Of a stretch of DNA of 32,805 bases, positions 2,982-17,947 are shown one piece after another. This DNA comes from a virus. A program made the position numbers and the translations under genes. The notes beneath the pieces are model-generated. The model did not search any database and had not been told where the DNA came from. It saw nothing but the letters and a program-made list of their open reading frames with translations. Every line of letters starts with the position of its first letter. Positions within the stretch are counted from its first letter, which is position 1. The DNA lies in the IMG/VR virus record IMGVR_UViG_3300015086_000001, positions 1 to 32,805 of that record. One strand, 5' to 3'.

Positions 2982-3085
2982 GCGACTTGGATTCCCTCGA
3001 AGCAAGGCGGCTGGTCTTCCTGGCCGGCCTGGCTATCGGTGCCGCGCTCGCGTTGGCCGCGCAGGCCCGGCTGCTGCACCACTGA
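2978..3085 (+). CDS. 35-aa single-pass membrane peptide
   Basis: ATG 2978 overlaps the upstream stop as ATGA. The peptide is MSDLDSLEARRLVFLAGLAIGAALALAAQARLLHH. It is below the ORF-track length cut-off from this start. Confidence 0.55.
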   Translation: MSDLDSLEARRLVFLAGLAIGAALALAAQARLLHH

Positions 3086-3125
3086 CGGTCACCGCCCGGT
3101 CCAGACAACCGCCGGACGGCGACTC

Positions 3126-3161
3126 GCGCCGCCCGCTGTTTCTTGCTCCGGCGGGCGGCGC
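3126..3161 (+). promoter_or_regulatory. GC-rich 11-bp-stem hairpin between the membrane peptide and the endolysin
   Basis: gcgccgcccgc (3126-3136) is the exact reverse complement of gcgggcggcgc (3151-3161), with a 14-nt loop and no U-tract. Confidence 0.35.
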
Positions 3162-3230
3162 CCACCATCCACGGCCCCCGATCTACAAGCGCCGTCGCCG
3201 TGCCCCAAGCATCGACAGGAAGGTACCACC

Positions 3231-4046
3231 ATGGCCATGGCCCCCCGCATCGTCCCCCGAGCAGCCTGGGGTGCCCGCCGACCCAAGACCACACCGGCCA
3301 CAGTCCCCATCGCCGCACGGACCGCGACCTGCGTCCACCACGACGGCAAAGTGCCCATCAACATCCGGACCGTCGCCGAGGCATACGTACTCGTCCGCCG
3401 CGACCAGAACTTCCACATGGACGGCAACGGCTGGAACGACATCGGCTACAACTTCCTCGTCATCAGCGCACCCGGCACACCCATCGACGGGATGATCCTC
3501 GAAGGCCGCGGCCGGGACGTCATCGGCGCCCACGTCCTGAACTGGAACACCCCGTGGATCGGCGTCCAGGTCGCCATCGGAGGAGCCCAACAACCCAGCC
3601 CAGCAGCCCTCGCATCTGTGCGCTGGCTGCACGACGGGTTCGTAGTCGCCGCCAAACACGTCCTCAGCATGAAGGGCCACCTCGACGGGTTCCCTACCAT
3701 CTGCCCCGGGCCGATCCTGCAGGCATGGGTGAGGGCAGGGATGCCAGTGACAGTTCCTCCGAGCTCGCCCGCCCCCAAGCCGCCGACCCCAACGAAGCAG
3801 CAGCCGACCCCAACAGGAGCCCTTCACGTGAACACCCTCGACTTCTCCCACGTCACCGCGGCCAGCACCACGTGGGTTCGGGGCACCGCAGTGGCGCCCC
3901 TGCAGCGGCTCCTGCAGGTCAATTCTGACGGGCTCGGAGGTCCGGGAACCCGGGCCACGCTGTACGCCTACCAGTCGTCCCACGGGCTCAAACCCGACGC
4001 CGTCTTCGGGCCGGCCACAGCCACAACCCTGCTCGCAGGAAGGTGA
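3231..4046 (+). CDS. Endolysin: N-acetylmuramoyl-L-alanine amidase (PGRP/Amidase_2-like) plus C-terminal peptidoglycan-binding domain
   Basis: ATG 3231 follows AGGAAGG (3217-3223). Motifs: CVHHDG, NFHMDGNGWNDIGYNFLV, GAHVLNWN, TICPGP. A Pro-rich linker is followed by a PG_binding_1-like repeat (DGLGGPGTRATLYAYQSSHGLKPDAVFGPATATTL). Confidence 0.9.
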   Translation: MAMAPRIVPRAAWGARRPKTTPATVPIAARTATCVHHDGKVPINIRTVAEAYVLVRRDQNFHMDGNGWNDIGYNFLVISAPGTPIDGMILEGRGRDVIGAHVLNWNTPWIGVQVAIGGAQQPSPAALASVRWLHDGFVVAAKHVLSMKGHLDGFPTICPGPILQAWVRAGMPVTVPPSSPAPKPPTPTKQQPTPTGALHVNTLDFSHVTAASTTWVRGTAVAPLQRLLQVNSDGLGGPGTRATLYAYQSSHGLKPDAVFGPATATTLLAGR

Positions 4047-4050: not shown

Positions 4051-4377
4051 GTGAGCCCGAACCAAGCCGCCCGCCGCGTCGACGGCGAGCCCGTCATCAT
4101 GGTCCTATCCGTCCTCGCAAGCTTCCAGTTGCTCTTCGCCGGCGCCGGCCTGTCCGACGTCATCGGCGCCAAGCCAGTGTTCCTCGGCATGCTGCTCGTC
4201 GCCTCCATCCAGGGCGGCATCCAATTTTGGGTGAGGGGACAAACCGTCGCCGCGGTCAACGTCGTCGCCTACGTCGCACCCAACAGCGCCGTCGTCGCCG
4301 GCAGCGCCCTGATGGGTGTCCCCGAAGGGGAACCCGTCGCCGTCGTCGCCACCCCGCCCCCTGTTCTGCCCTCCTGA
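4051..4377 (+). CDS. Holin (two predicted TM helices)
   Basis: GTG 4051 lies 7 nt after AGGAAGG. Hydrophobic segments are VIMVLSVLASFQLLFAGAGL and VFLGMLLVASIQGGIQFWV, followed by RGQTV, as in actinophage holins. The gene is immediately downstream of the endolysin. Confidence 0.7.
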   Translation: MSPNQAARRVDGEPVIMVLSVLASFQLLFAGAGLSDVIGAKPVFLGMLLVASIQGGIQFWVRGQTVAAVNVVAYVAPNSAVVAGSALMGVPEGEPVAVVATPPPVLPS

Positions 4378-4411
4378 CCTTCACGGTCCCCTTCCTAGGA
4401 GGGCAGCGAAC

Positions 4412-4446
4412 CGCCCCCACCTGGTGCCCAGGTGGGGGCGTTCTCG
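4412..4446 (+). terminator. Intrinsic terminator of the late/lysis operon
   Basis: cgcccccacctgg (4412-4424) pairs perfectly with ccaggtgggggcg (4428-4440) and is followed by TTCTCGTT. Confidence 0.7.
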
Positions 4447-4618
4447 TTGAAATCGCAGCTGATTCCCTGCGAACGCTCGTTGGCAGAGAACGCAGGAAAG
4501 AGACGGTCGACAGGTCGATTACCAGCGGGTAGGGTCCACCAGACCAAAGGCGGCCCCGCTCAGTGCGTCCAACACTGAACGAGGCCTTGCCGCCACCAGA
4601 TGTGACCTGGAGACGACC

Positions 4619-5524
4619 ATGCAAGAGACTAACCACACCCCTGCCCCAATAGGTCCCGCAGAGCAGGCCGTAATCGGCTTCCTCGCCCGATACTCGTGCG
4701 CCGGCACCGTCGACGCCTACACGATCGATCTGCGCATCCTCTTCCAGTGGTGCGCCGCTAACGGCGTCGAGCCCTTGCAGGCATCACGCACACACCTCGA
4801 GCTCTTTGCCCGCCACCTCGAGCACGACCGCGGCAACTGCCCGGTCTCGGTCCACCGGCGCCTGAGCACGATCAAGTGCTTCTACAACATCGCCTCCATC
4901 GACGGCTACGTCGGTCAGTCCCCAGCCATCCACCTACGCCTCCCTCGCGTCTTCAAGGACGAGACCAAGACCCTCGGCCTGGACCGTCTCGAGCTCGGCG
5001 CGGTCGTCTCCGCCGCCCGAGCCTCCAGCGCCTGCGACTCGGCGCTGATCACCATGCTCGGACTGCTTGGGCTGCGGGTCTCCGAAGCCTGCAACGTCCG
5101 GATCCAGGACATCCACGGCCTCGAGCGCGGCCACCGCACACTGACTCTGGTCGGCAAAGGCCGCAAGCCCGCCACGATGCCGCTCGCCGTACCTGTCGCC
5201 CGGGTCCTGGACGCCGCGGCCGGTGACCGGATCGAGGGCCCGCTCCTGCTGCGCGCCAACGGCCGGCCCATGAACCGCGACTCGGCTGCCCGGGTCGTGG
5301 TCCGCCTGGCCAAGCAGGTCGGCATCAAGAAGAAGCTTTCACCGCACTCGTTGCGGCACTCGTACATCACTGCGTGCCTGGACGCCGGGGTCCCGCTGCG
5401 CGACGTGCAGATCGCCGCCCGCCACTCCGACCCCCGTATGACGACCCGGTACGACCGCGCCCGCGGCAACCTCGACAGGCACGCCAACTACGTCGTCGCC
5501 GCCTTCATCGCCGGCGCCGCATAG
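4619..5524 (+). CDS. Tyrosine recombinase 1 (XerC/D-like integrase)
   Basis: GGAGA lies 5 nt upstream of the ATG; 301 aa. There is a SAM-like N-domain. Catalytic pattern: GLRVSE (R), GKGRK (K), HSLRH (HxxR), ARHSD (H), TTRY (Y). Confidence 0.92.
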   Translation: MQETNHTPAPIGPAEQAVIGFLARYSCAGTVDAYTIDLRILFQWCAANGVEPLQASRTHLELFARHLEHDRGNCPVSVHRRLSTIKCFYNIASIDGYVGQSPAIHLRLPRVFKDETKTLGLDRLELGAVVSAARASSACDSALITMLGLLGLRVSEACNVRIQDIHGLERGHRTLTLVGKGRKPATMPLAVPVARVLDAAAGDRIEGPLLLRANGRPMNRDSAARVVVRLAKQVGIKKKLSPHSLRHSYITACLDAGVPLRDVQIAARHSDPRMTTRYDRARGNLDRHANYVVAAFIAGAA

Positions 5525-5539
5525 CCCCCCCTCCAGCTG

Positions 5540-5573
5540 CCTGCTGATAGGTCGGACAGGCCGACCCAGCAGG
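5540..5573 (+). promoter_or_regulatory. Composite hairpin 16 nt after the int1 stop (terminator or recombination-site element)
   Basis: cctgctg/cagcagg (5540-5546 / 5567-5573) encloses ggtcgg/ccgacc (5550-5555 / 5561-5566). Confidence 0.4.
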
Positions 5574-5691
5574 ACACTGAACGCCACTCCTGAACCCAGT
5601 CAGGTGGGGGCGTTTTCATGCCCACAGAGGCGACCGATAACGAAGATTCAAGCTAAGCCGTAGCCTGCTACTCAGTCCTCTCCGGACAACG

Positions 5692-5727
5692 CGCCCCACC
5701 TGGTCCCCAACAGGTGGGGCGTTTTTA
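5692..5727 (+). terminator. Intrinsic terminator
   Basis: cgccccacctg (5692-5702) pairs with caggtggggcg (5711-5721), with an 8-nt loop, followed by TTTTTA. Confidence 0.8.
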
Positions 5728-5786
5728 TGCTCAAACCACTGACCCTGATTAACGATTCATCGAACTGAACAGCGAGGCGCGCCCCA

Positions 5787-6428
5787 ATGACCTATCCCGC
5801 GACCCAGACGTACTGGCTTCAGTCGACTAACCGATCCCGGTTCGGGCTGCGTCGCTACTCCTCCCGAGAAGGTCGCACCGGATGGACCTGCGAGAGCGGA
5901 TGGCACGAGGCAAAGGGACCTCTCGTGTGGGAGGGCACAGCGGTGCAGACCGAGCATGACTCTGGCCACCGCACATTGGCCGCCCTGCCGGATACCTCGC
6001 ATGACAGCCCGCTCTGGCCGCGATTCTGCCAAGCGGGCTGCGGCTACGAGTTCGTCGAGAGCGACAACTGGCAGGACACCCAGGACCAGCTCTACCAGCG
6101 CACCGACACCGGCCAGCGATTCACCCTGCGCGACGCTCCGCCCGGTGCCTGCTGGGACGCCTGGTGGATGCCCGACAACTGGCGCGGCGCCGACGGCATC
6201 GCGCTCATGGTCCGCTGCCCCAACGGCGACGACTGGCATGTCGACAGCGAGGCCAGCAACTGCACCCGCAAGGGCGAGACCCACCAGTGCTGGGTCCGCC
6301 ACGGCGACCCACGCCAGGCCAACGTCACCGTCGACAAGAACGGCGACACCTGCGCAGCTGGTGCAGGCTCCATCCTCGCCGGGGACTACCACGGCTTCCT
6401 CATCGGTGGCCTGCTCACTGCCGGCTGA
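5787..6428 (+). CDS. Trp/Cys-rich 213-aa hypothetical protein (moron between two recombinase genes)
   Basis: GAGG lies 9 nt upstream. GC3 is strongly G/C in this frame, unlike the overlapping ORFs 5757..6482(-) and 5956..6921(+). The C-terminus is ..CPNGDDWHVD..HQCWVRHGDP..NVTVDKNGDTCAAGAGSILAGDYHGFLIGGLL. Confidence 0.75.
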   Translation: MTYPATQTYWLQSTNRSRFGLRRYSSREGRTGWTCESGWHEAKGPLVWEGTAVQTEHDSGHRTLAALPDTSHDSPLWPRFCQAGCGYEFVESDNWQDTQDQLYQRTDTGQRFTLRDAPPGACWDAWWMPDNWRGADGIALMVRCPNGDDWHVDSEASNCTRKGETHQCWVRHGDPRQANVTVDKNGDTCAAGAGSILAGDYHGFLIGGLLTAG

Positions 6429-6439
6429 CCTCATTCGAC

Positions 6440-6464
6440 CTACAAGATTTCCGAATCTTTGTAG
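6440..6464. repeat. AT-rich near-perfect palindrome CTACAAGATTT-CCG-AATCTTTGTAG
   Basis: The arms are complementary apart from one bulged base. It is locally the most AT-rich spot in a GC-rich genome and is followed by a second TGTAG at 6469-6473. Confidence 0.6.
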
Positions 6465-6487
6465 CTCTGTAGCACCCCACACACGTA

Positions 6488-6518
6488 GGCCACGAGCACC
6501 CGCTCGTGGCCCTTTTTC
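6488..6518 (+). terminator. Intrinsic terminator after the 213-aa gene
   Basis: ggccacgagc (6488-6497) pairs with gctcgtggcc (6502-6511), loop accc, followed by CTTTTTC. Confidence 0.85.
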
Positions 6519-6577
6519 GTGGGCGCAGATGTGTGGACTAAGAAACCAAATGCCCCAAATTGCAGGAGCTGAGCACG

Positions 6578-7387
6578 ATGGACCCGATCGAAGACCACCT
6601 CGCCGACCTTGCCCGCGACCGATACTCGGACGCGACGATCGACGCCCGAGGCCGGCTCCTGCGCACCGTCCCGGACATCCTGGGCATCGACCGCGCGGGC
6701 ATGGAGGCCTGGTGGAACTCCCGGCAGCTCACCGGCCGCGGCGAGGTCCGCGCCGCGTCCTCCCTGGTCGGCGAGGAGTCCCACCTCAGGACGTTCTACA
6801 AGTGGGCGCTCCGGCACGAGCTCATCAGCCACAACCCGGCCGACTGGCTGCCCAGAGTCCGACAGGCCTCCACTACAGCGACCACCATCCGCGAGTCGGA
6901 GCTCACCGCTGCCATGCGTGACGCCACCCCGATGATGCGACGGATGATCGTCCTGGCCGCCATGGCCGGCCTGCGCTCGGCCGAGGTCGGCCGCGTCACC
7001 TGGGCCGACATAGACCGCGACGCGGGCGTGCTGCACGTCCGCAAAGGCAAGGGCAGCAAGGACCGGTCCGTGCCCCTGTCCGGCGGGCTGCTCGCCGAGC
7101 TCGGCGACCCCGGCGAGGGACGCATCATCTCCTCATCCACCGGCCGGACGATGTCGCCCAAGGCGGTCTCGGCCAGCGTCGGGCGCTACCTACGCAGGGA
7201 GGGCATCGACTCAACCGCGCACAAGCTCCGGGCAAGGTACGCGACACGGTTCCACTCCGCGACGGGTGACCTCGTGGCCACAGCCCACGTCCTCGGGCAT
7301 GCATCGGTGGCCACGACCCAGCGGTACGTGGTGGCCAGCTCGGACACGATGCGCAAAGGCGCAGAGGCCTGCGGGCGGATCGGTTAG
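6578..7387 (+). CDS. Tyrosine recombinase 2
   Basis: ATG 6578 lies 9 nt after AGGAG (6564-6568); the ORF is open from TTG 6560. Catalytic pattern: GLRSAE, KGKGSKDR, HKLRARY, LGHAS, TQRY. Confidence 0.9.
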   Translation: MDPIEDHLADLARDRYSDATIDARGRLLRTVPDILGIDRAGMEAWWNSRQLTGRGEVRAASSLVGEESHLRTFYKWALRHELISHNPADWLPRVRQASTTATTIRESELTAAMRDATPMMRRMIVLAAMAGLRSAEVGRVTWADIDRDAGVLHVRKGKGSKDRSVPLSGGLLAELGDPGEGRIISSSTGRTMSPKAVSASVGRYLRREGIDSTAHKLRARYATRFHSATGDLVATAHVLGHASVATTQRYVVASSDTMRKGAEACGRIG

Positions 7388-7593
7388 CCGGGGTCAGTCA
7401 GCTTCTGCTTGTAGCGCTCGTACTGGTAACGACTCAGCGGCGTCATCGGGGCGTCCTGCCGGATCTGACAGCCGCAGTCATGGCACTGGTACGGGCCAGC
7501 GACCAGGTCGCCGTCCTTGACAAGGGTGTGGGCGGAAACGAGGTGCTGGCAGGCATGACAGCGCCAGGCGTACACACCCCAAGTCGTATTCAC
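7384..7593 (-). CDS. Small zinc-ribbon protein (CxxC..CxxC)
   Basis: GTG at 7593 overlaps the upstream stop (GTGA). The protein is VNTTWGVYAWRCHACQHLV..YQCHDCGCQI.. It is convergent with int2, and the two genes overlap by 4 bp (7384-7387). Confidence 0.6.
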   Translation of the reverse strand: MNTTWGVYAWRCHACQHLVSAHTLVKDGDLVAGPYQCHDCGCQIRQDAPMTPLSRYQYERYKQKLTDPG

Positions 7594-7808
7594 CTGTTCG
7601 CGATTGCGAGCAGCACGTCCGCGTGACACGGCTGATCCAGCCGGCACCAGCAAGCCAGATCCTTGCCCGCGAGTTCGTCGCGGATCTGGCCCTCCGCGCC
7701 AATGCTCTTGATGTAGGCCCGGAACAGGGCGATCGCCATCTCACGGTCGATGAGGAACTCGATTGGGTCCGGGCTGTCTGGCGCGCTCGGCATACGTGCG
7801 CCACTCAC
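7590..7808 (-). CDS. DUF4326-like C-terminal fragment (N-terminal half missing or frameshifted)
   Basis: The C-terminus DREMAIALFRAYI...GKDLACWCRLDQPCHADVLLAIAN matches the CWC..PCH.DVL signature I associate with DUF4326. GTG 7808 or ATG 7793 are possible starts. Confidence 0.55.
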   Translation of the reverse strand: MSGARMPSAPDSPDPIEFLIDREMAIALFRAYIKSIGAEGQIRDELAGKDLACWCRLDQPCHADVLLAIANR

Positions 7809-7836
7809 GGCTGTCGAATGGGTCGGCGTCGCTCAT
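7741..7836 (-). CDS. 31-aa ORF overlapping the DUF4326-like gene in another frame (possible frameshifted N-terminus)
   Basis: ATG 7836 overlaps the upstream stop (ATGA). The peptide MSDADPFDSREW.. contains a PF reminiscent of the GNPF motif of DUF4326 N-termini. Confidence 0.3.
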   Translation of the reverse strand: MSDADPFDSREWRTYAERARQPGPNRVPHRP

Positions 7837-8030
7837 GGCGCTGTCTCCCGGCTGAACGCTGCGGCCACGTCATCAGCGGACGGGATGTGACTGCGGCGGG
7901 CCATGACTGCCAGCCGCTCGTAGCCGCGGCCCATCCGCCTGTGCCAACGAGCGTTGTTGATGGTCCACCCGCTGGCCACGCCGAGAGCCCAGATAGCGAC
8001 CAGGGTCAGGAACTGCACCGCCGTGCTCAT
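7833..8030 (-). CDS. 65-aa protein with N-terminal TM helix (prophage-expressed membrane protein)
   Basis: MSTAVQFLTLVAIWALGVASGWTI.. followed by a basic tail. It lies in the leftward lysogeny-side operon. Confidence 0.6.
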   Translation of the reverse strand: MSTAVQFLTLVAIWALGVASGWTINNARWHRRMGRGYERLAVMARRSHIPSADDVAAAFSRETAP

Positions 8031-8053
8031 GGCTGAGTCGTCACCGCGCGAAG

Positions 8054-8130
8054 GAAGTTCACACTTCCCCTGGATGTGTGAACTTTCAGCTCTGAACCTT
8101 GCATGTCCGTGAAGTCCAGTTCAGTGTTCA
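8054..8130. promoter_or_regulatory. Array of TGAAC/GTTCA half-sites including a perfect 10-bp inverted repeat
   Basis: AAGTTCACAC (8055-8064) and GTGTGAACTT (8076-8085) flank an 11-bp spacer. Further half-sites are CTGAAC 8091-8096, GTGAAG 8109-8114, GTTCAG 8119-8124 and GTTCAT 8126-8131. Confidence 0.5.
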
Positions 8131-8403
8131 TCTCTTCGCCCTCCGTGCCTTGAGCAACGCATCAGCGGCGGCCTGCGCAGACCCGAACGGCCTGCCGCCG
8201 TGGACCATCCGCACCTTCCCGCGGACGATCATGTCCGCGCCCCACCCGTTGTCGTACTCCACGACGTACCCCACGGTCGTGCCTACTCGGGAGACGAGCA
8301 CTGCCCCCCACTTCGTCTTACGGAGGACCTTGCGCGACTCAACCACCCAGGTCCGGCCGAAGCCGGGGTCTGCGAGAACTGGCGCGACACTCTTGGCGGT
8401 CAT
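8128..8403 (-). CDS. 91-aa basic hypothetical protein translationally coupled to recombinase 3
   Basis: ATG 8403 shares its A with the int3 stop (TGATG). The protein is MTAKSVAPVLADPGFGRTWVV...ALLKARRAKR. The longer 8128..9030 ORF is the same frame read through int3 antisense-free space. Confidence 0.6.
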   Translation of the reverse strand: MTAKSVAPVLADPGFGRTWVVESRKVLRKTKWGAVLVSRVGTTVGYVVEYDNGWGADMIVRGKVRMVHGGRPFGSAQAAADALLKARRAKR

Positions 8404-9251
8404 CACGCGGCCAGCAGATCGATCGCGGCGCGGCACTCGGCGTCGTCGACAGCCAGGTAGACCTCGGTCGACGCCAGGAACTCGTGCCTCATCAAGTTCT
8501 GAACCACCCTGATATTCGCGCCCTCGCGCAGGAGCCGCGTCGCGAAGGTATGCCGGCCGCGGTGGATCCCGCCCTCGATCCCGTTGGCTGCCAGCAGTGT
8601 GCAGGTCCGCGCTGACACATGGCGCGCGGACACGTGCCCGGCTTCTGAGGAGCTCGGGAACCACCACCCGTGGCGCGGCATGGTCGACGCCAGCGCCCAG
8701 ACCGCGGCGTGGGTCGGCACGTAGGCGCTGCGTCCGCCCTTGCCGCAGACGAACATCCGGTCTTCCTGGACGTCCTGCCCTCTGATTTTTGCGATCTCGA
8801 AGGCCCTCAAGCCGGAGAACAAAGCCAAGATCAGCCAGGCGTGCTGTCTCGCGCTGGTCGCCGACGCCAGGATCAGGTCGACCTGCTCCGAGGTCAGCGG
8901 GCGAGGGGAGCCCTTGGGCACGTGCGGGCGGTGCATCTTGGTCATCGGGTCGACCGCAACGAGCTCGGCCTCCTCTGCCGCCCAGCCGAAGTAGCTGCGC
9001 AGGTGCCCGTAGAACGTCGCGCGCGACCAAGGCGCGTACCCCGGCCGCCCGAGCCAGGCCGTGATCTCGGCCCGTGTGACGTTGGGGAAGTTGGGGTGGT
9101 GGCGCTCGAAGTCGGCCAGGTGCGCGAGGCGGTAGTGGACGGTGCTGATGGCGCAGCCGTTGGCGCGAAGCCAGTCTGCGAACCCGCTCATGTCTGTCAT
9201 GGGCGCATCGTCTACCAGCACCAGGTGGCGCGCGGGGGATTCGTGTGTCAT
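8403..9251 (-). CDS. Tyrosine recombinase 3 (integrase in the repressor operon)
   Basis: 282 aa. Catalytic pattern: GLRAFE, CGKGGR, HRGRHTF, MRHEF, TEVY. The gene starts 13 nt downstream of the repressor gene. The start could also be the internal MTDMSGF. Confidence 0.9.
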   Translation of the reverse strand: MTHESPARHLVLVDDAPMTDMSGFADWLRANGCAISTVHYRLAHLADFERHHPNFPNVTRAEITAWLGRPGYAPWSRATFYGHLRSYFGWAAEEAELVAVDPMTKMHRPHVPKGSPRPLTSEQVDLILASATSARQHAWLILALFSGLRAFEIAKIRGQDVQEDRMFVCGKGGRSAYVPTHAAVWALASTMPRHGWWFPSSSEAGHVSARHVSARTCTLLAANGIEGGIHRGRHTFATRLLREGANIRVVQNLMRHEFLASTEVYLAVDDAECRAAIDLLAA

Positions 9252-9264
9252 CCGACAGATCCGG

Positions 9265-9585
9265 TTACGCCGCGGTCTGGCGGACGAGACTGAGCCGAGA
9301 ATCGGACCGGACCACCCGCAGGCGTCGGGTTAACTCAACGGTAAACGGGCCGCCCCACATGAGCCAGTCACGGTCGTAACCGGTGCTGGCAGCGATGGCT
9401 GCGATATGCCGGGTCACACCGCGGGTACCTCGGCCCAGTTCCATGCCCTGCCACACGCCGAGTGGCACTCCGGTTGCTATAGCGGCTTCCCTTTGAGACC
9501 AACCCTCTTCATGTCGCAGGGCTATCAGCCGCATGGGTAGGGAGTCGGTGGGAATCCTAGGGCGTGGGTCCGTCTCGGGTGCCAT
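9265..9585 (-). CDS. XRE/cI-type HTH repressor
   Basis: From ATG 9585: MAPETDPRPRIPTDSLPMRLIALRHEEGWSQREAAIATGVPLGVWQGMELG.., a classic HTH_3 pattern. It faces the rightward early genes. Confidence 0.8.
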   Translation of the reverse strand: MAPETDPRPRIPTDSLPMRLIALRHEEGWSQREAAIATGVPLGVWQGMELGRGTRGVTRHIAAIAASTGYDRDWLMWGGPFTVELTRRLRVVRSDSRLSLVRQTAA

Positions 9586-9704
9586 GGCAGGATCGTGGCG
9601 CGTCCAATGGCATCTTGTCAAGCACTTTGACGCTCCGGGCGTGGTTTAGTGCCAGACACGCACGTCATCGCTATTGACGCGCGAATGTGCCAATGGCATG
9701 TTGG
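9586..9704. promoter_or_regulatory. Divergent switch region with repeated operator-like motif CCAATGGCATNTTG
   Basis: Copies lie at 9604-9617 and 9690-9703. The second is embedded in the 11-bp palindrome TGCCAATGGCA (9688-9698). There is also GTCAAgcactTTGAC at 9617-9631. Confidence 0.55.
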
Positions 9705-9988
9705 CCGTTATGCAGAAATCGACGATGCAACTGCTCATAGAGCATCGGTACGGCCCCACGCTCCAGTCCGACATAGAGGCGATGATCGAAGATGGCCTGG
9801 GCTGGCGCGCGATGGCCAAGGTGGTCTCCAAGCACGCCGACTATCCGCTCAGCTACGAAGCGCTGCGCCAGTGGTACGGCCCCCAGGCTGAGCAGGCAGC
9901 CAAAGCCATGAGGGACGCCAAGGCCAAAGCGAACACCACATTGCCCCTGGACGACGACGTCCCCGACAGCGTTGCCACTGCGGTATGA
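9698..9988 (+). CDS. First rightward early protein (Cro-position; possible DNA-binding)
   Basis: The ORF is open from TTG 9674, with ATGs at 9698, 9710 and 9725 and no clear SD (possibly leaderless). It contains ..DGLGWRAMAKVVSKHADYPLSYEALRQWY.. Confidence 0.5.
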   Translation: MLAVMQKSTMQLLIEHRYGPTLQSDIEAMIEDGLGWRAMAKVVSKHADYPLSYEALRQWYGPQAEQAAKAMRDAKAKANTTLPLDDDVPDSVATAV

Positions 9989-10161
9989 GCACCGCGACGG
10001 CGATGACCGTGATCGTGCCGTCATGCGCTGAGTGCGCCTCAGACATGCACCACAAATGCTTCGGCAAGACCTGGGTCGACGATCTCTACCGGCTCATGCC
10101 TTGCCCCTGCGCCAAAGCCGGCCACCAGCGCCAGCTGAGCGCGCCCCAAGAGCCGAACTAA
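9985..10161 (+). CDS. 58-aa Cys-rich protein
   Basis: ATGA overlap with the upstream gene. The protein is MSTATAMTVIVPSCAECASDMHHKCFGKTWVDDLYRLMPCPCAKAGH.. It is below the ORF-track cut-off and is followed by a hairpin. Confidence 0.5.
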   Translation: MSTATAMTVIVPSCAECASDMHHKCFGKTWVDDLYRLMPCPCAKAGHQRQLSAPQEPN

Positions 10162-10165
10162 TTGC

Positions 10166-10200
10166 GGGGCACCAGGTGGCTGGAGTTCATCTGGTGCCCC
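10166..10200 (+). terminator. Hairpin after the first early transcription unit
   Basis: ggggcaccag (10166-10175) pairs with ctggtgcccc (10191-10200), with a 15-nt loop and no clear U-tract. Confidence 0.4.
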
Positions 10201-10534
10201 TGAATGTGACAGGCGAAAGAAAGGTTTTCCGGGGGGCCAGGGAAAAGCCCCGAGCTAAGGCTCTGAGGGCTTAGACAACCCCCGGATTACCTGCTCTCCT
10301 CCGGGGGGGGGTGTGCGGATACGCACGTCTGGCACGGCCCGACGAGTGCACGGCCGCAGGGCGAAGGCCCGCAGCTAAACCGCCACGGGCCTTCTCACCA
10401 ATTACTAGGGCTTTGCGGCCCTGTAATACCCACAGTACCGGGCTGAACCGGGTTTACGTCACCTTAGCGGGGACAGACGTATACCTTATTGCGGGTATTT
10501 TTCGGGGTCGCGAGGCCGGAAAGACATGGGCACC
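10201..10534 (+). other. Structured non-coding region (candidate ncRNA and/or replication origin)
   Basis: There is no convincing ORF and GC is lower than elsewhere. Elements: a G9 run at 10303-10311, mutually exclusive pairings around CCCCCGGA (10279-10286), a 10-bp-stem hairpin at 10401-10427, direct repeats of GCACGGCC, and a T-tract hairpin at 10481-10502. Confidence 0.55.
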
Positions 10535-10753
10535 ATGTCACCCCAAACCTCTTGCCCAACTGGAACGTACAACTCACCTCTGACAAGCCACGACCGCGTT
10601 GCAGACGCTGTCGAGACACTCCGCATATTGTCGGATCAGCGAGTCGCCGGTCAAGAGAAAACCCTTGATCTGCACGGTGTTATCGCCCACATCCACGGCC
10701 TCGGCTACCACCTGGTCCTGGCTCGTGATCTTCCCCGCGGCAGCCGGCCGTGA
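10535..10753 (+). CDS. Possible 72-aa protein coupled to the downstream 423-aa gene
   Basis: Its stop overlaps GTG 10750 (GTGA). GGAAAG lies 11 nt upstream of ATG 10535. GC3 is clearly lower than in neighbouring genes, so coding status is uncertain. Confidence 0.35.
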   Translation: MSPQTSCPTGTYNSPLTSHDRVADAVETLRILSDQRVAGQEKTLDLHGVIAHIHGLGYHLVLARDLPRGSRP

Positions 10754-12021
10754 GCGTCGCGCAGCTGGTCGACCAGGCCCCGCCGGTCGACGTCCTGCCG
10801 GCCAGGACGGGCTTCAAGGGCGCCAAGGTGCCATGGGTGCACGTGCACGACGACGGCATACGCCCGGGGCTGTCCACGAAGGTGCCTGATGGTGCCTACC
10901 GGGGCACTGTGCGCTGGTCGAAGCCTGAGGCCTTCCTGAAGGGGCTGCGTGTAGCCCTGGAGGCCCATCCGGAGCTGCGACGAACGAACCTAGACCGGCG
11001 GACCGGCAAGTACAAGGACGTCCAGGGGCTCGAGCGGTTCATGCGCATCGCCGAGGCCGTGACCCTCGCGGCCGACCATCGCACCGGCCGCGACGTGCGC
11101 GCCCGCAGGAAGGAGATCGCCGAGGCTGCCGGCTGCTCGGTCCAGGACGTTCAGCGGTGGAACCGCATCGCCTCCCGAGTCCTACAGATCCTGGTCCCGA
11201 TCGCCGACGGCCGACAGCTGACCCTCCTCGAACGCCTGGACGTCTGGGCACGCCAGACAAGCCCCCGACTAAAGCAGCACGGCGTCTCCACGGTCTGGGC
11301 GTTCCACGTTCCGCCCTGGCTGCGCCAGATCATGGCCGCTGCAGCGATCCAGGCCCCACGGATGGACGCCCGGGGCCGCTGGCACACCACCTCTGACCTG
11401 CAGCTGAAGGAGTCCGCACCCCATCCACGTAGTGGTCACGCTTTTGAGACAGATCACCTTGCGTACAACTCCCCTTCGCACCCGACAAGCGGCTCGCTTC
11501 GCTCACCAAGCGGCCCGGGCTCCGCCCGGACAGCCCTGATGAAGAAGGGGCGACCCCCGCCGGGCCGGCAGCTCGCGATCAGATTCGTCAAAGCCATGCC
11601 ACTGCTACGTTCAACGTCCCCCAAGCGGCTTGAGAACCGCCTAAAACGGTTCGTCGAGTCCCGACCCGTCTGGACAGCACAGGACCTTCTCGACGCGATT
11701 CAGACCAGCTGCGAACGAAGCGGCCGGAGCGCAACCCCACCCGCCGACCAGATCCACACGCCATGGGCGTTCGTCGGGTCACTCCTGGACAGCATCCACG
11801 AGCACGACGACCACCCACGCCTGCCGTTCGTCGACCCCGCCGAGCTCCGCTGCGGCCGACCTGAGTGCGACTACGGCTGGATCACCCTCGACGACGTCGC
11901 CGGCCGGCCTCTGGTCCGCCGCTGCGACAGGTGCCGCCCCGGCGCATGGCCCGAGCACGAGTCGAGCGCTGATGACCTCCTCGACGGGGCACCGGCCGAC
12001 GACTCAGAGCCGCCGTTCTGA
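10750..12021 (+). CDS. 423-aa DNA-binding protein with central HTH and C-terminal Cys4 zinc ribbon (putative replication initiator)
   Basis: HTH-like RRKEIAEAAGCSVQDVQRWNRIA. The C-terminus is CGRPECDYGWITLDDVAGRPLVRRCDRCRPG. It is the only candidate replication protein in the genome. The function is inferred. Confidence 0.6.
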   Translation: MSVAQLVDQAPPVDVLPARTGFKGAKVPWVHVHDDGIRPGLSTKVPDGAYRGTVRWSKPEAFLKGLRVALEAHPELRRTNLDRRTGKYKDVQGLERFMRIAEAVTLAADHRTGRDVRARRKEIAEAAGCSVQDVQRWNRIASRVLQILVPIADGRQLTLLERLDVWARQTSPRLKQHGVSTVWAFHVPPWLRQIMAAAAIQAPRMDARGRWHTTSDLQLKESAPHPRSGHAFETDHLAYNSPSHPTSGSLRSPSGPGSARTALMKKGRPPPGRQLAIRFVKAMPLLRSTSPKRLENRLKRFVESRPVWTAQDLLDAIQTSCERSGRSATPPADQIHTPWAFVGSLLDSIHEHDDHPRLPFVDPAELRCGRPECDYGWITLDDVAGRPLVRRCDRCRPGAWPEHESSADDLLDGAPADDSEPPF

Positions 12022-12037
12022 TGGCTACCGCCGATGC

Positions 12038-12334
12038 TCACGCGGATGGTCGCTTTCCTTGCGGCACGCAGACAACCGTCACGACCTCTTTGGTGTCGAG
12101 CATGACGACGACCCTGACACCACCTGCCTCGCGGATCTCAACGTTCCATCGCCCACCACCTCGTTTCGTCACCGGCGCGCAGACGACTCGCAGAGCAACG
12201 ATGGGATTGACATGCCGCTGGCTCATCCGCCTCAGAGCGTGTTCAGTGAAAGTCCACTCGGCTGCTTCCGCTGGAAGCCCCTTGGCCACGATCGTGAGAC
12301 CCGATATGTGGATCGTGATCTCATCGTCACTCAT
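12038..12334 (-). CDS. DUF4258-like toxin-domain protein, antisense to the early operon
   Basis: 98 aa from ATG 12334. WTFTEHALRRMSQRHVNPIVALRVV...VRVVVMLDTKEVVTVV fits the F-[ST]-x-HA-x-x-RM-x-x-R pattern of DUF4258. It exactly fills the only + strand coding gap (12022-12397). Confidence 0.6.
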   Translation of the reverse strand: MSDDEITIHISGLTIVAKGLPAEAAEWTFTEHALRRMSQRHVNPIVALRVVCAPVTKRGGGRWNVEIREAGGVRVVVMLDTKEVVTVVCVPQGKRPSA

Positions 12335-12397
12335 CGGACTCGTTCCATCGCGGCATCTAACCGCAGAACGCCAATCACCCCTAGCCCGCGCGCCGTC

Positions 12398-12610
12398 ATG
12401 CTGACTCCCGGTTCCACACGTCTGGCACCAGCTGGCCACCAGGTCGCCGACGTGCACTCGATCGAGGCAGCCAAGCTGCACCGGCTCGACCTCGCCGACG
12501 CGCGCATCGTCCAGTGCTCCTGGTGCGACGCCCGGAGCTTCACCGACCCCTGCGCGTTCTGCGCAGGCCGCTTCCCAGAAGCCGGATTCGAGGATGGAGC
12601 AACGTCATGA
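12398..12610 (+). CDS. 70-aa zinc-ribbon protein
   Basis: ATG 12398. The protein contains ..IVQCSWCDARSFTDPCAFCAGRF.. (CxxC-x8-CxxC). It starts the chain of overlapping early genes. Confidence 0.6.
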   Translation: MLTPGSTRLAPAGHQVADVHSIEAAKLHRLDLADARIVQCSWCDARSFTDPCAFCAGRFPEAGFEDGATS

Positions 12611-12846
12611 GCCCAAGCAGTAACGCACCGCAGAGCGCGTTCAAGCGGCCTCGCCGGGTGAAGCCGGCATACGACATCCAGGTCGGCGACGTCGTGCGCA
12701 TCGGCAACAGCTCGTTGCGCTGGGTCGTCGAGGAGTTCGGCGACCTCACGCCCGGCGTGCCCTACGCCGACCTGCGACCAGTGGCTGGGCCTGGCGTAGC
12801 CAGAGCCACGCTCGACCGGCTCAGCGTCGTCAGCAAGGGAAGATGA
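12607..12846 (+). CDS. 79-aa hypothetical protein
   Basis: ATGA overlap with the upstream gene and good GC3. The protein is MSPSSNAPQSAFKRPRRVKPAYDIQVGDVVRIGN.. Confidence 0.65.
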   Translation: MSPSSNAPQSAFKRPRRVKPAYDIQVGDVVRIGNSSLRWVVEEFGDLTPGVPYADLRPVAGPGVARATLDRLSVVSKGR

Positions 12847-12849
12847 GCT

Positions 12850-13485
12850 GTGACCACTGACCGTGAAGCAATATTCACCGACACACGGTCTCGACGGATC
12901 CCCAGCTGGCTGTCCCATCTGCGGACCGACCGGCGAGGTCTACCAGTGCCGTACGTGAACCTCTGGGGAGAGGAGGACCTGACGAGGGTGCGGATTGCGT
13001 ACGACCGGCATACCGACTCGGAGGCGTTGTTCCTGGACGACGATGACCAGGAGATCCCCGACTTCACGCGGCAGAACATGGGCAGGCAGCGGGAGTGCAT
13101 GGTCGACGGGCTCTGTCAGGTCTGCCACCGCCAGGTGCCGTGGTCACGCCGGTTCGTGGTCGTGTCGGGGATGAGTGTCCAGCCGATCAACGTCCCGAAG
13201 TTCGGCGACGTGGTCGTGATCCACGAGCCGTGGCTCTGCCAGCGGTGCGCCCAGTTCGCAATCGAGGTATGCCCGGCGCTGATCCGCCGTTCCCGCGAGG
13301 ACGAGCTGAAGCTGATCCAGGTCAGCTCGCAGATGGACGTGTCGATAGTTGTCTCTCGAGGTTGGATCGAGGGGCCTCTGGAGGAGGAGACGAAACGGGT
13401 GCAGCCTGCGATGTGGTGCAAGATCCTGCTGACGAGAACGCGATTGGAAATCGGCCGTGGCGTTGAGAGCGCGATGAGCCGATGA
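12850..13485 (+). CDS. 211-aa Cys-rich hypothetical early protein
   Basis: GTG 12850. Cysteine motifs are CQVCHRQ and EPWLCQRCAQFAIEVCPAL. It carries the start-proximal motif at 12857-12868. Confidence 0.8.
   Translation: MTTDREAIFTDTRSRRIPSWLSHLRTDRRGLPVPYVNLWGEEDLTRVRIAYDRHTDSEALFLDDDDQEIPDFTRQNMGRQRECMVDGLCQVCHRQVPWSRRFVVVSGMSVQPINVPKFGDVVVIHEPWLCQRCAQFAIEVCPALIRRSREDELKLIQVSSQMDVSIVVSRGWIEGPLEEETKRVQPAMWCKILLTRTRLEIGRGVESAMSR
12857..12868 (+). promoter_or_regulatory. Start-proximal element copy 1 (CTGACCGTGAAG)
   Basis: It begins 7 nt after the first base of GTG 12850 and encodes T-D-R-E with the CGT and GAA codons. Confidence 0.5.
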
Positions 13486-13826
13486 GCCCGGATGCTGACC
13501 GTGAAGAGATAGTCATTGCCGCCCCGCGCATGTCGATTGCCGAGTTCCGCAGGCTCGGCTACGTGCAAGAGATCAACCGCCTACTGCTTCACCCATGCGG
13601 ACTGGCACTTGAGGTGTCTGTCGCAGAGGATGGCACCGAAACGCTCGGTGGGATCTGGGACTATCGCGAGGACCCCGAGGGCATCTATTACAGCGGCAAC
13701 CTGACTGACGATCTCTCAGCCAAGGCGCTCAGAGTCGCAGCCGAACGGGCTAGGCGCGCAGATGCTCGCATCGAGATGCTCGGCTACATCGTGCAACCCG
13801 TGGACGGCATGAGGAGGCAACGATGA
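13482..13826 (+). CDS. 114-aa hypothetical early protein
   Basis: ATGA overlap. The protein is MSPDADREEIVIAAPRMSIAEFRRLGYVQEINRLLLHPCGLAL.. Confidence 0.8.
   Translation: MSPDADREEIVIAAPRMSIAEFRRLGYVQEINRLLLHPCGLALEVSVAEDGTETLGGIWDYREDPEGIYYSGNLTDDLSAKALRVAAERARRADARIEMLGYIVQPVDGMRRQR
13494..13506 (+). promoter_or_regulatory. Start-proximal element copy 2 (GCTGACCGTGAAG)
   Basis: The CTGACC core begins 13 nt after the first base of ATG 13482. The 13 nt are identical to copy 3. Confidence 0.5.
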
Positions 13827-13981
13827 GTATCGACAGAGTGGAGCCCAGCGCCGACATGCGTCAGAACGCCCACCAGCTCCGGGAGATGTTCATCGCACTG
13901 GTGGAGGAAGGCTTCACCGAAGCGCAAGCCGTCGGCATCATCGGGAAGATCCTCAGCGCCGGGATGGGCAGTTCGTCATGA
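13823..13981 (+). CDS. 52-aa hypothetical protein
   Basis: ATGA overlaps at both ends. The protein is MSIDRVEPSADMRQNAHQLREMFIALVEEGFTEAQAVGIIGKIL.. It is below the ORF-track cut-off. Confidence 0.55.
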   Translation: MSIDRVEPSADMRQNAHQLREMFIALVEEGFTEAQAVGIIGKILSAGMGSSS

Positions 13982-14382
13982 CCGACTCTGCTGACCGTGA
14001 AGGTGTAGTCACGCGCACCCCTATCGCAGCGGTCTGCGTCCATGAGGATGGGTTTGAGCACCCCTCGAGTGGCAGGCTGCCCTGTTCGTGGACGCTCTCC
14101 AGGCTCGACGCTATCCGCGAGCGTGACGAGGCGCGGGCCGAACTGGCTGACGCCAAAGACGCCTACGTTGCGGCACAGGAGGAGGAGGAGCGGCTGACCG
14201 CCGCGTGTGTCCAGTCCGAGGCTGTGATCCGTCGAGTCGAAGAAACCGTGAACACCTTGATGAGACTCAGTGGCGCTGCGCAGCGAGATCATGTGATCGG
14301 ACACCCCAACACGGCGGCCTACTCCGATGCCTACGAGAACGCGATCCGTCTGGTCCGTGCCGCTCTTGAGGAACGTCCATGA
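13978..14382 (+). CDS. 134-aa hypothetical early protein (coiled-coil segment)
   Basis: ATGA overlap. The protein is MTDSADREGVVTR... with ERDEARAELADAKDAYVAAQEEEERL. Confidence 0.8.
   Translation: MTDSADREGVVTRTPIAAVCVHEDGFEHPSSGRLPCSWTLSRLDAIRERDEARAELADAKDAYVAAQEEEERLTAACVQSEAVIRRVEETVNTLMRLSGAAQRDHVIGHPNTAAYSDAYENAIRLVRAALEERP
13990..14002 (+). promoter_or_regulatory. Start-proximal element copy 3 (GCTGACCGTGAAG)
   Basis: The CTGACC core begins 13 nt after the first base of ATG 13978. Confidence 0.5.
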
Positions 14383-14549
14383 GCGACCAGCCTGCTGACC
14401 GTGATGGGATGTTCTACATCCGAGTCCTCGAGGATGGCAGCACAGTCGCGATCTGCAGACGGTGCGGCGCAAAGGTCGTCGACATCCTCGACGCTGCTCA
14501 CGTCTGCGACCCGGCCAGCGCCGAAGACCCTCCATGGCAGGACTACTGA
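14379..14549 (+). CDS. 56-aa CxxC protein
   Basis: ATGA overlap. The protein is MSDQPADRDGMFYIRVLEDGSTVAICRRCGAKVVDILDAAHVCDP.. It is below the ORF-track cut-off. Confidence 0.55.
   Translation: MSDQPADRDGMFYIRVLEDGSTVAICRRCGAKVVDILDAAHVCDPASAEDPPWQDY
14394..14406 (+). promoter_or_regulatory. Start-proximal element copy 4 (GCTGACCGTGATG)
   Basis: The CTGACC core begins 16 nt after the first base of ATG 14379. It matches copies 2 and 3 at 12 of 13 positions. Confidence 0.45.
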
Positions 14550-14878
14550 TGACCCCCGACGCTGACGCGGACCCCACCACATTCCGGGAGTATGTGGAGG
14601 CATACCGGACCGCGGTCAACAGTGAGGCCCAGCATGAGGCCGACACCCTGAAGGACGAGGCGATGCAGCAGGTGAGCGTTGGGGAGCAGGTCGCCGAGCT
14701 CAGTAGATCGCTGCGTCAGAAGGATGCCACCATCGACCGTGTCAGAGCGCTCACCGACGAATGGCACGTGGTTACTGACCGCGATCGCACACACGCACCC
14801 GGCATATGTCACAAATGGCATCCCGACTGCCTGGTGCTCGCTATCCGCGACGTGCTCGAGGAGCCACCTCGTGGGTGA
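14549..14878 (+). CDS. 109-aa hypothetical early protein
   Basis: TGATG overlap. The protein is MTPDADADPTTFREYVEAYRTAV.. A degenerate motif copy, GCTGACGCGGACC, lies at 14561-14573. Confidence 0.7.
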   Translation: MTPDADADPTTFREYVEAYRTAVNSEAQHEADTLKDEAMQQVSVGEQVAELSRSLRQKDATIDRVRALTDEWHVVTDRDRTHAPGICHKWHPDCLVLAIRDVLEEPPRG

Positions 14879-15380
14879 CTTCGACGCCGCCCAGGTCCTC
14901 GCTGAGGTCATCCACTACGCCCTCAACCCCAAAGGCAATGACTTCCAGCGGGAGGCGCGCGCCGTCATCGCGGCCATCAAGGCCGACACGCCGCAGGGCG
15001 CCGAGCTCCGGAGAGCCATCTTTGGATTCGGGCCGGCGCCTGCGCTGTGGGACCGCCTGGACAAGACGGCACCCACATCGGCACAGATGATCGAGTGGTA
15101 CGCGCCGCACACCGCCGAGCTGATCCACTCCGAGCACTTGGCCGCCCACGCTCGCGACATGGCAGGGACGGCCACAGGCACGGAAGAGGCCGCTCTGTGG
15201 ACGCAGATCGCCGCCGAGATCGACGGCTGGCTCGACGAACCCAACACTGCTGACCAGCTGCGTGAGGACAGGGTCACCAGCACCGAGCGTGACGCGGCCT
15301 GGTACGAGGCTCGCCGTGGGCGCGCAGACGACGTGCGCCCGTCCCGGCTAGAAGCGGAACGCGACGCGGACGACTCATAA
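14871..15380 (+). CDS. 169-aa hypothetical early protein
   Basis: GTG 14871 overlaps the upstream gene by 8 nt; the ORF is open from 14679, so the start is uncertain. Acidic C-terminus. Confidence 0.7.
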   Translation: MGDFDAAQVLAEVIHYALNPKGNDFQREARAVIAAIKADTPQGAELRRAIFGFGPAPALWDRLDKTAPTSAQMIEWYAPHTAELIHSEHLAAHARDMAGTATGTEEAALWTQIAAEIDGWLDEPNTADQLREDRVTSTERDAAWYEARRGRADDVRPSRLEAERDADDS

Positions 15381-15382
15381 TC

Positions 15383-15538
15383 ATGGTTATGCACATCGTC
15401 GTCCTGGCACTGCTCATCGTGGCCGCGCTCCTATTCCTGCTCGCAGCCATCGGCGTCTCATCACGCCTGAACCTCGTCGCATTCGGCCTGCTCGCCTGGG
15501 TGAGCACGCTGCTGGTCACAGAGCTGGGCGGCAAGTAG
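15383..15538 (+). CDS. 51-aa two-TM membrane peptide
   Basis: MVMHIVVLALLIVAALLFLLAAIGVSSRLNLVAFGLLAWVSTLLVTELGGK. It is below the ORF-track cut-off. Confidence 0.55.
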   Translation: MVMHIVVLALLIVAALLFLLAAIGVSSRLNLVAFGLLAWVSTLLVTELGGK

Positions 15539-15544
15539 AGACAC

Positions 15545-16330: not shown

Positions 16331-16350
16331 CTAAACCCCAAACGCACCCC

Positions 16351-16373: not shown

Positions 16374-16407
16374 GTGTGAAGATGATGCCAGTAGGCGAGC
16401 TGTCACC

Positions 16408-16440: not shown

Positions 16441-16452
16441 CATGTCACGTGA

Positions 16453-17943: not shown

Positions 17944-17947
17944 ACCC

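Follow-up and report, generated by a model that had tools for sequence, protein, structure and literature searches.

The window analysed here is the whole of IMG/VR virus record IMGVR_UViG_3300015086_000001, a stretch of 32,805 nucleotides in which three tyrosine recombinase genes, designated int1, int2, and int3, lie between the lysis genes and the early region of a phage genome (Table 1). An exact 127-bp terminal overlap in the contig closes the genome circularly at 32,678 bp, in agreement with the 32.7 kb given by an earlier reading made without database searches (hereafter the sequence-only reading). The repressor gene, rep, which lies beside int3, is intact in this closed genome, and the sequence therefore represents the non-integrated form. 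The genome is that of an actinobacteriophage-like siphovirus of about 66% GC from soil; it comes from a JGI metagenome, and the phage is also found in Logan run ERR4837140. No relatives at the nucleotide level are present among 50,697 phage records, the int1 gene excepted, and queries with DNA, with a tail-region protein, and with an early protein return no sister genome from the phage collection or IMG/VR. Loci used for comparison are numbered with the prefix L.

Table 1. Features of the window. Positions are those of the whole stretch; aa, amino acids; HTH, helix-turn-helix; z, z score.
Feature	Position	Strand	Description
Endolysin gene	3039-4046		Structural genes run through the window end up to this gene
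Holin-like gene	4051-4377		Next after the endolysin gene
Extra block	4378-8403		About 4 kb; int1, orf213, int2, and four small leftward genes; absent from L127
Intrinsic terminator	4412-4440	+	After the holin-like gene, upstream of int1; 13-bp stem and T-run
int1	4619-5524	+	301 aa; SAM-like core-binding and catalytic domains; C-terminus ...IAGAA
Strong palindrome	5540-5573		Downstream of int1; z = -6.0 for 5540-5575
Intrinsic terminator	5691-5722	+	Downstream of int1; related imperfect copy at 5585-5617
orf213	5787-6428	+	Between int1 and int2; own terminator; GC3 0.85
AT-rich palindrome	6440-6464		Just before the terminator at 6488-6511; z = -4.1
Intrinsic terminator	6488-6511	+	After orf213
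int2-family element	6531-6542	+	GTGTGGACTAAG; conserved cis element 46 bp upstream of int2; palindrome half-site
int2	6578-7387	+	269 aa; C-terminus ...GRIG, no -AA tail
orf69, DUF4326 gene, orf65	7384-8030	-	Three small leftward genes in the extra block, orf69 zinc-ribbon-like; also gene calls in L001; absent from L127
Palindrome	8055-8086		AAGTTCACAC-N11-GTGTGAACTT; downstream of the rep-int3-orf91 operon; z = -4.9
orf91	8128-8403	-	Translationally coupled downstream of int3; also a gene call in L002
int3	8403-9251	-	282 aa; arm-less; C-terminus ...DLLAA
rep	9265-9585	-	106-aa HTH repressor; HTH_31, phrog_2328 transcriptional repressor; C-terminus ...RQTAA
Candidate attP core	9324-9342	-	ACCGTTGAGTTAACCCGAC; inside rep, inferred from relatives
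Divergent control region	9586-9673		Between rep and the first rightward early gene; TTGACA at 9621-9616, minus strand
orf104	9674-9988	+	First rightward gene, cro position
Large terminase gene	18735-20240		42-44% identity to Gordonia and Mycobacterium phage terminases

The three recombinase genes are intact, as the sequence-only reading had proposed. Their products match the Pfam family PF00589 (Phage_integrase) far beyond the cut-off, with E values of 5.9e-23 for int1, 2.6e-19 for int2, and 2.2e-20 for int3, and int1 additionally matches Phage_int_SAM_1. In each protein the six catalytic residues (R-K-H-R-H-Y) align with those of a structure, namely XerD for int1, XerA for int2, and Gp33 for int3. 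The motifs are GLRVSE, GKGRK, HSLRH, RHSD, and TTRY in int1; GLRSAE, GKGSK, HKLRARY, LGHAS, and TQRY in int2; and GLRAFE, GKGGR, HRGRH, MRHEF, and TEVY in int3. The GC content at third codon positions (GC3) is 0.88 to 0.91, typical for real genes in a genome of this composition. The ratio of nonsynonymous to synonymous substitution rates (dN/dS) relative to the nearest homologs is about 0.2-0.3 for each gene (about 0.21 for int1 and about 0.28 for int2), the reading frames contain no stop codons, and all three genes are under purifying selection. For int2 the start at ATG 6578 is favoured, having an AGGAG ribosome-binding site and agreeing with the N-termini of homologs, and TTG 6560 is less likely. 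Pairwise identities among the three proteins are 24-29%; they are therefore not recent duplicates, and the strong divergence seen by the earlier reading is borne out. A hidden Markov model (HMM) built from all three families detects exactly three recombinase open reading frames (ORFs) in the window, to which probes for serine and long tyrosine integrases add nothing further.

Only SAM-like and catalytic domains are detected by Pfam in the three proteins, and the structure alignments are nearly full length. Their lengths (Table 1) and the lack of an arm-binding domain make them 'simple' tyrosine recombinases in the sense of PMC8138268, in which simple recombinases are reported from 27 phages and arm-binding-domain recombinases from 410; the 442-aa integrase of L005, in contrast, shows Phage_int_SAM_3 and Phage_int_M. 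Three simple tyrosine recombinases close together are likewise found in recombinase-in-trio (RIT) elements, where the three genes are adjacent, co-oriented, and usually overlapping, RitA has two core-binding domains, and RitC has an extra C-terminal helix (PMC8138268). Unlike these elements, and as recognised from the start, the window has mixed orientations (+, +, -), with orf213, four small genes, and three terminators between the recombinase genes, each family of which occurs singly elsewhere.

The simple, Xer-like character of all three proteins, for which the best NCBIfam names are XerC, XerD, or XerA, would also be compatible with a Xer-like pair that resolves multimers of an episomal (plasmid) prophage, an idea put forward in the sequence-only reading, and Bacillus Tyroviruses have been proposed to combine integration and plasmid stages by means of three recombinases (PMC9703825). 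However, the best scores are 118.7, 86.8, and 93.3 bits (range 67-119) against curated NCBIfam cut-offs of 220-371, the genome shows no recognisable genes for ParA, ParB, or plasmid replication, int3 and int1 have relatives that sit integrated in chromosomes, and the three genes never form a conserved pair, all of which makes this explanation extremely unlikely. Models of integron integrases, FimB/E invertases, and gamma-mobile-trio recombinases give partial matches of 18-52 bits against cut-offs of 221-600.

The genes rep and int3 form one leftward operon from which orf104 diverges, and the HTH repressor gene lies directly upstream of int3, so that the repressor-operon position initially assigned to int3 is confirmed. 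The rep stop and the int3 start are separated by 13 bp, which leaves too little room for an intergenic attP. The start of rep is probably ATG 9585, because TTG 9621, the start chosen by the ORF tool, looks like the TTGACA -35 hexamer of the rep promoter. The repressor is 35% identical to gp40 of Gordonia phage Bowser. The best structural relative of int3 is PDB 5vfz 'Gp33' (E = 2e-38), the chain of which is 99.6% identical to integrases of a mycobacteriophage group and which we take to be the Brujita integrase. That integrase is said to have been characterised by Lunt and Hatfull in 2016 (cited in PMC7194413) as a 'simple, arm-less, directionless' enzyme, and the integration-dependent immunity systems of BPs, Brujita, and Charlie were reportedly described by Broussard et al. 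in 2013.

Integration-dependent immunity is documented for these three mycobacteriophages and for the Gordonia phages Obliviate, Guacamole, and Bowser (PMC3694055, PMC4929511, PMC4982277), and its hallmarks are a leftward rep-int operon, a divergent cro, an attP inside rep, and C-terminal tags for degradation on both proteins (PMC3694055, PMC7194413). The rep-int3 module shows four of five features of such systems, and the fifth, attP in rep, is supported only indirectly, via relatives. In common with the known examples, rep and int are transcribed leftward as an operon and the first early gene rightward away from it, the integrase is small and arm-less, both Rep and int3 end in -AA, no excisionase is recognisable, and in integrated relatives the 5' end of int abuts host DNA. 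The L-x-A-A ending is invariant in the 24-sequence alignment of the int3 family (L280 and A282 being the invariant residues), and -AA is the commonest C-terminal ending among 120 homologs. The repressors and integrases of Bowser and Melba carry the same kind of ending, which PMC4982277 and PMC3694055 regard as a degradation tag. Differences from the known examples are that the attP in rep is inferred, that no tRNA-like core was found in the window, and that int3 shares only about 35% identity with those that have been cultured.

The placement of attP inside rep comes from relatives of int3; a metagenome scan with the int3 alignment yielded mostly distant ones and contributed little. In free-phage relatives an HTH repressor always precedes the integrase (L007, L008, L123-L128, L030, and L031). 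In six integrated relatives (L009; L022, Luteipulveratus flavus; L023, Nocardioides; L026, Mycolicibacterium litorale; and the prophage predictions L131 and L134) the 5' end of int borders directly on host DNA or on the edge of the prophage, with the repressor body missing. A partial tRNA 3' end is present in L026. The prophage junction of L022 carries ATGAGTTTGACCCCGAG and then a remnant ORF, ending in ...RSAPAA before its stop codon, between a host acyltransferase gene and int; a tail remnant of this kind is what an attP inside rep predicts. Read on the minus strand from 9342 to 9324, the window has ACCGTTGAG-TT-AACCCGAC; the counterpart in L123 is ACCGTTGAG-G-AACCCGAC. A 1-nt indel shifts the frame in L123, yet the latter half of the core is kept, which argues for a DNA site and not for a peptide motif. 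Both L125 and L008 carry ACCGTT(G/C)AGT. These comparisons point to a candidate attP core at about 9324-9342.

For int3 the sequence-only reading had suggested a site at 8054-8130, but this is at the opposite end of the gene from the junctions of the integrated relatives, which are upstream of int and inside rep. The Logan assembly of the same sample splits into two contigs beside the palindrome at 8055-8086, at 8094-8123. This break was considered as an attP signal and rejected: the other ends of these contigs fall inside ordinary genes, and the breaks therefore look like effects of coverage or microdiversity. A tRNA-derived attP core was likewise rejected, since ARAGORN and a permissive Rfam scan of the window found none, and orf91 was discarded as a directionality factor, having no family match and no conservation with its positional counterparts. 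Neighbouring and early ORFs show no match to excisionase, HTH_17, or MerR families, which is weak evidence of absence. The early region (9674-18700) has almost no detectable families: among the 13 ORFs scanned, no replication, partition, or excision genes are recognisable, and the only strong PHROG match is to a function-unknown family, with a weaker match to a DNA-binding protein.

The closest relative of the lysis-lysogeny region is a 29,795-bp viral contig (L126/L127), in which the counterparts of rep, int3, the endolysin, and the cro-position gene are 65%, 58%, 64%, and 43% identical, respectively, to those of the window. This contig has one recombinase, of int3 type, whose gene ends (3') about 320 bp from the lysis cassette; it is without the extra block, and the window has thus gained about 4 kb. 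The genes int1 and int2 are also absent from the rep-int3 phages L007, L008, L123, L124, and L128. According to the sequence-only reading, the idea of multiple functional recombination systems would weaken if relatives were found without two of the three genes, and L126/L127 and these five phages are such relatives. In HMM scans of 34 comparison loci (within 10 kb on either side), none has three recombinases and 11 have two. An int1-type gene together with an int2-type gene occurs in no other locus examined, and pairs of int3-type and int2-like genes recur (L006, L009, and L024).

Two of these pairs have settings of their own. On the 102-kb bacterial contig of L006 (7666-10903), the gene for a 418-aa tyrosine recombinase overlaps at its end with a gene of int3 type (57% identity), and the pair lies directly after a tRNA-Gly/Cys/Val cluster as a two-recombinase integrative element. 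In Nocardioides fonticola (L024, 9983-13461) a gene of int3 type faces an int2-like gene (33-35% identity) in convergent orientation; the two enclose about 1.8 kb of small genes beside the host erpA, with HicA/HicB-like genes nearby; this may be a small two-recombinase element.

Within the extra block, int1, orf213, and int2 are insulated from one another by terminators. The product of orf213 has no match in Pfam, PHROG, or PADLOC and no homolog in any fetched locus; its C-terminal half is rich in Cys, His, and Trp. Among the small leftward genes, the DUF4326 gene is assigned with E = 2.6e-11, and no defence system is matched by PADLOC in the block. Three related terminator hairpins (4412-4445, 5585-5617, and 5691-5726) have CCCCACCTGG...CAGGTGGGGCG in common, and a 17-nt near-identical direct repeat (4429-4445 and 5601-5617; 94% identity) flanks int1 and may be a footprint of cassette acquisition.

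The position of int1 after the lysis cassette, and its insulation by strong terminators at 4412-4440 and 5691-5722, are as first described. The protein is 63-79% identical to homologs from Arthrobacter phages and metagenomes. In 47 Arthrobacter phage records a 'tyrosine integrase' located after the structural and lysis genes is 62-65% identical to int1, and in 61 Gordonia phage records the corresponding genes are about 41% identical (including Bowser gp37 and Melba gp35). Altogether 108 phage records match int1 at E <= 1e-40 with a coverage of 93-98%, and at E <= 1e-30 the family grows to 4,443 proteins. The int1 gene follows the endolysin and holin genes, an order also seen in L004, L005, Judy, Bauer, Richie, Tiff81, and Maja. 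With full-length homology and a place closing the rightward arm of structural and lysis genes, int1 belongs to the actinophage 'second tyrosine integrase' family (Arthrobacter FF, AY, FA, and FO; Gordonia Bowser and CZ). Seven cultured phages were inspected, and each pairs its int1-type gene with a different integrase next to the repressor: Tiff81 (gp32 with gp35), Maja (gp28 with the serine integrase gp29), Judy (gp35 with gp39), Bauer (gp32 with gp39), Richie (gp36 with gp40), Melba (gp35 with gp39), and Bowser (gp37 with gp39). Of 22 int1-type loci in IMG/VR, a second integrase lies within 9 kb in 11 and is lacking in 10. An int1-type gene is terminal in six prophage-like contigs and likewise in the chromosome of Pseudarthrobacter sp. 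P1.

The C-terminal sequence AGAA occurs in 80 of 120 int1 homologs, and this conserved tail suggests that the int1 family may be subject to proteolytic control. Across Arthrobacter, Gordonia, and metagenomic members the tails are -AGAA, -SSAA, or -SVA (for example in Melba gp35, Bowser gp37, and Tiff81 gp32); they resemble the degradation tags of integration-dependent-immunity integrases, and the long canonical integrases of the same phages have no such tail. A search for a conserved flanking site of int1 found nothing beyond the ORF ends in 8 loci and then in 21 loci, and no tRNA lies beside the terminal int1-type genes, except for an FF-type tRNA-Arg in L220. There (9001-10926) an int1-type gene and a short tyrosine recombinase gene converge on a tRNA-Arg(TCT) gene, which is the layout of QuinnAvery of cluster FF; the arrangement may relate to the tRNA-dependent lysogeny reportedly treated in PMC10865867.

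The notion that int1 is only an accessory was dropped after int1-type genes were found alone at prophage ends. The opposite notion, that int1 is the main integrase, acting downstream of its 3' end, and that rep-int3 is secondary or partly redundant, would draw on the very large size of the family, the classical post-lysis position, the conserved -AGAA tail, and the terminal location of int1-type genes in predicted prophages of isolate genomes and near the prophage end in Pseudarthrobacter sp. P1. Nevertheless, it is considered improbable, given that another integrase adjoins the repressor in each of the seven cultured phages, that the nearest relative, L127, has no int1, and that no att-like conserved sequence is found beside int1.

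The protein int2 is 59-75% identical to the members of a family that is almost entirely metagenomic (soil phages). An int2-type gene is usually the sole recombinase gene in related phage contigs, and it lies at the boundary of late and early genes in L010-L015. In L003, L021, L117, L118, L120, and L121 the int2-type gene is translationally coupled behind an N6/N4 DNA methyltransferase gene in a rightward early operon (for example at 2074-3539 in L003 and 1977-5047 in L021), an unusual place for an integrase. The sequence-only reading had pointed to an AT-rich palindrome before int2, and the palindrome at 6440-6464 is real (z = -4.1); it was rejected as an int2 site, however, since it is not conserved in any int2-type locus, and the conserved element lies instead at 6531-6542. 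The exact 11-mer TGTGGACTAAG is found 46 bp upstream of int2 in the window and 44 bp upstream in L014/L015, where it belongs to an inverted repeat, GTGTGGACTAAG-TTGC-CTTAGTCCGC (9957-9982 in L014). The exact 11-mer also heads the methylase-int2 operons of L003 (at 1507) and L120 (at 581), and copies with one mismatch lie upstream of orf75-int2 in L010 (at 9735), L012, and L013. In L119 (about 3950-3975) the repeat reads GTGTAGACTAAT-ACGG-ATTAGTCTAC, both arms having changed in a compensatory way. Unrelated loci totalling 1.02 Mb contain no exact copy of the 11-mer and three copies with one mismatch. The full palindrome of the int2 family is taken to be a dimer-binding site, which could function either as an operator or as a core-type site for recombination; the window keeps its left half only.

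That half-site bears on the possibility that int1, int2, or both move all or part of the extra block as a nested mobile or invertible cassette. A pair of 17-nt inverted repeats, AACGCTCGTTGGCA(G/C)AG, might serve such movement; the copies, at 4472-4488 and 7939-7955, agree at 16 of 17 positions and enclose int1, orf213, int2, and two small genes, and a repeat of this quality arises in 1 of 200 shuffles. That L127 has no such block, that related terminators lie on both sides of int1, and that only a half-site of the int2-family palindrome is present upstream of int2 would also fit. On the other hand, the repeat test is post hoc and the second copy of the repeat lies inside the coding ORF orf65, the orientation is the same in two independent assemblies, and of the two palindrome arms the window retains the one farther from int2, whereas a simple insertion of int2 with its site would leave the other. 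Moreover, int1 and int2 never occur together in another locus, and orf213 is an orphan that carries no defence or cargo signature. A nested cassette is thus regarded as very unlikely; if it were real, integrase cassettes would spread between phages by their own site-specific recombination and not only by illegitimate recombination.

A further alternative is that three integration systems are all in use, each with its own attP and with a different attB or host. All three genes are intact and under similar purifying selection, each is a separate transcription unit, and each type is elsewhere the sole recombinase in the integrase position (int2-type in L010-L015, int1-type in L203, L215, and L217, and int3-type in L007, L008, and L127). 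Yet no att site is identified for int1 or int2, and the flanks of int1 are not conserved. Under integration-dependent immunity only integration at the rep site would stabilize the repressor, so that integration via int1 or int2 would leave Rep untruncated and would not by itself confer immunity; the published two-integrase phages likewise lack functional data (PMC13097055, PMC4982277). The parallel use of three systems is plausible but less likely than the explanation favoured below.

The explanation favoured here, and held to be fairly probable, is that the window represents a mosaic temperate actinophage in which rep-int3 is the lysogeny switch, with int3 as the proposed primary integrase, and int1 and int2 are extra, independent integrase cassettes. 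As in BPs and Brujita, rep and int3 would be co-transcribed leftward, with attP in the 3' end of rep. Integration at this core would cost rep roughly its final 20-25 codons, among them those for the -AA tail, and would thereby stabilize Rep, with int3 itself (...LLAA) kept unstable. The intact and separately transcribed int1 and int2 cassettes would have accumulated next to the immunity switch, where they most likely act apart from int3, at sites of their own, as alternative integration functions; a complex of int1 or int2 with int3 is probably not formed. Mosaic accumulation of integrase cassettes beside an integration-dependent switch is the simplest reading of the data.

Several observations weigh against this explanation. 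The placement of attP rests on relatives that are only 36-64% identical, and no attB, attL, attR, or junction was found for this phage. The Rep and int3 tails are likened to degradation tags by sequence resemblance only; some relatives end in -AS, -SA, or -VA, and int1 also bears such a tail. The gene in the cro position, orf104, has no recognisable domain in Pfam or PHROG. An int1-type gene is the terminal and sole recombinase gene in the predicted prophages L203, L214, L215, and L217 and in the Pseudarthrobacter locus L108, and int1 could be an equally good, or the main, integrase. The inverted repeat that brackets int1 through int2 hints that the block may be more than passive cargo. Finally, neither the phage collection nor IMG/VR holds a sister genome that would show whether the triple arrangement is stable.

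Among cultured phages, Bowser (gp37, gp39, and gp40) and Melba (gp35, gp39, and gp41) share the layout of the window, with a rightward int1-type gene, a few small genes, and a leftward short integrase gene behind a leftward rep, together with the -AA tails; the window adds to this layout the third recombinase, int2, and orf213 in between. The function of the int1-type gene is likewise unassigned in Bowser (PMC4982277). Two integrases are typical of the Arthrobacter clusters FF and AY and are also known from clusters FA and FO and from Gordonia phages (Bowser, CZ4, and CQ1) (PMC13097055, PMC11920828, PMC9670964, PMC11582879, PMC4982277, PMC9584220, PMC10868165), and their division of labour has been reported as unassigned (PMC13097055, PMC11920828, PMC9670964, PMC11582879, PMC4982277, PMC9584220). 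The remark in the sequence-only reading that a temperate phage normally needs one integrase understates the published occurrence of two-integrase Arthrobacter and Gordonia phages. Phages of the Arthrobacter clusters FF, AY, FA, and FO (for example QuinnAvery, BillyTP, GlobiWarming, and Maja) resemble the window in having an int1-type gene after the structural and lysis genes and a second integrase. In those clusters, however, the partner is either a serine integrase or a long tyrosine integrase with an arm-binding domain, and it comes with excise and a conventional repressor, whereas the partner of int1 in the window is a repressor-linked arm-less integrase, to which a third gene is added.

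Three distinct Xer-like tyrosine recombinases in one phage genome are also a feature of the Tyroviruses, Bacillus phages of 160-170 kb in which the three genes are conserved; Psychrobacillus phage Perkons and Vibrio phage pVv01 are similar (PMC9703825). The Tyrovirus genomes are five times larger, and their recombinase genes are dispersed (one of them in the tail module), conserved throughout the group, and linked to plasmid-maintenance genes, whereas in the window a span of 4.6 kb holds all three genes, of which the nearest relative lacks two. No report of a small actinophage with three tyrosine recombinases was found in the open-access literature. The window looks like an extension of the known two-integrase actinophages, with each gene in a known family, and not like a new kind of system.

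The phage is uncultured, and the value of the finding is for now comparative; to the specialist it is a modest and not a major surprise. Multi-integrase phages have been described repeatedly as an actinobacteriophage curiosity in which the second gene has no assigned function. Compact, arm-less, factor-independent integrases are of interest as tools for genome engineering, and concrete candidate sites are offered by the putative attP core in rep (9324-9342) and by the palindromic element of the int2 family (6531-6542). The window and a near relative that differs from it by two extra cassettes form a clean natural comparison, which poses the questions of whether extra integrases add integration targets and whether they interfere with an integration-dependent immunity switch.

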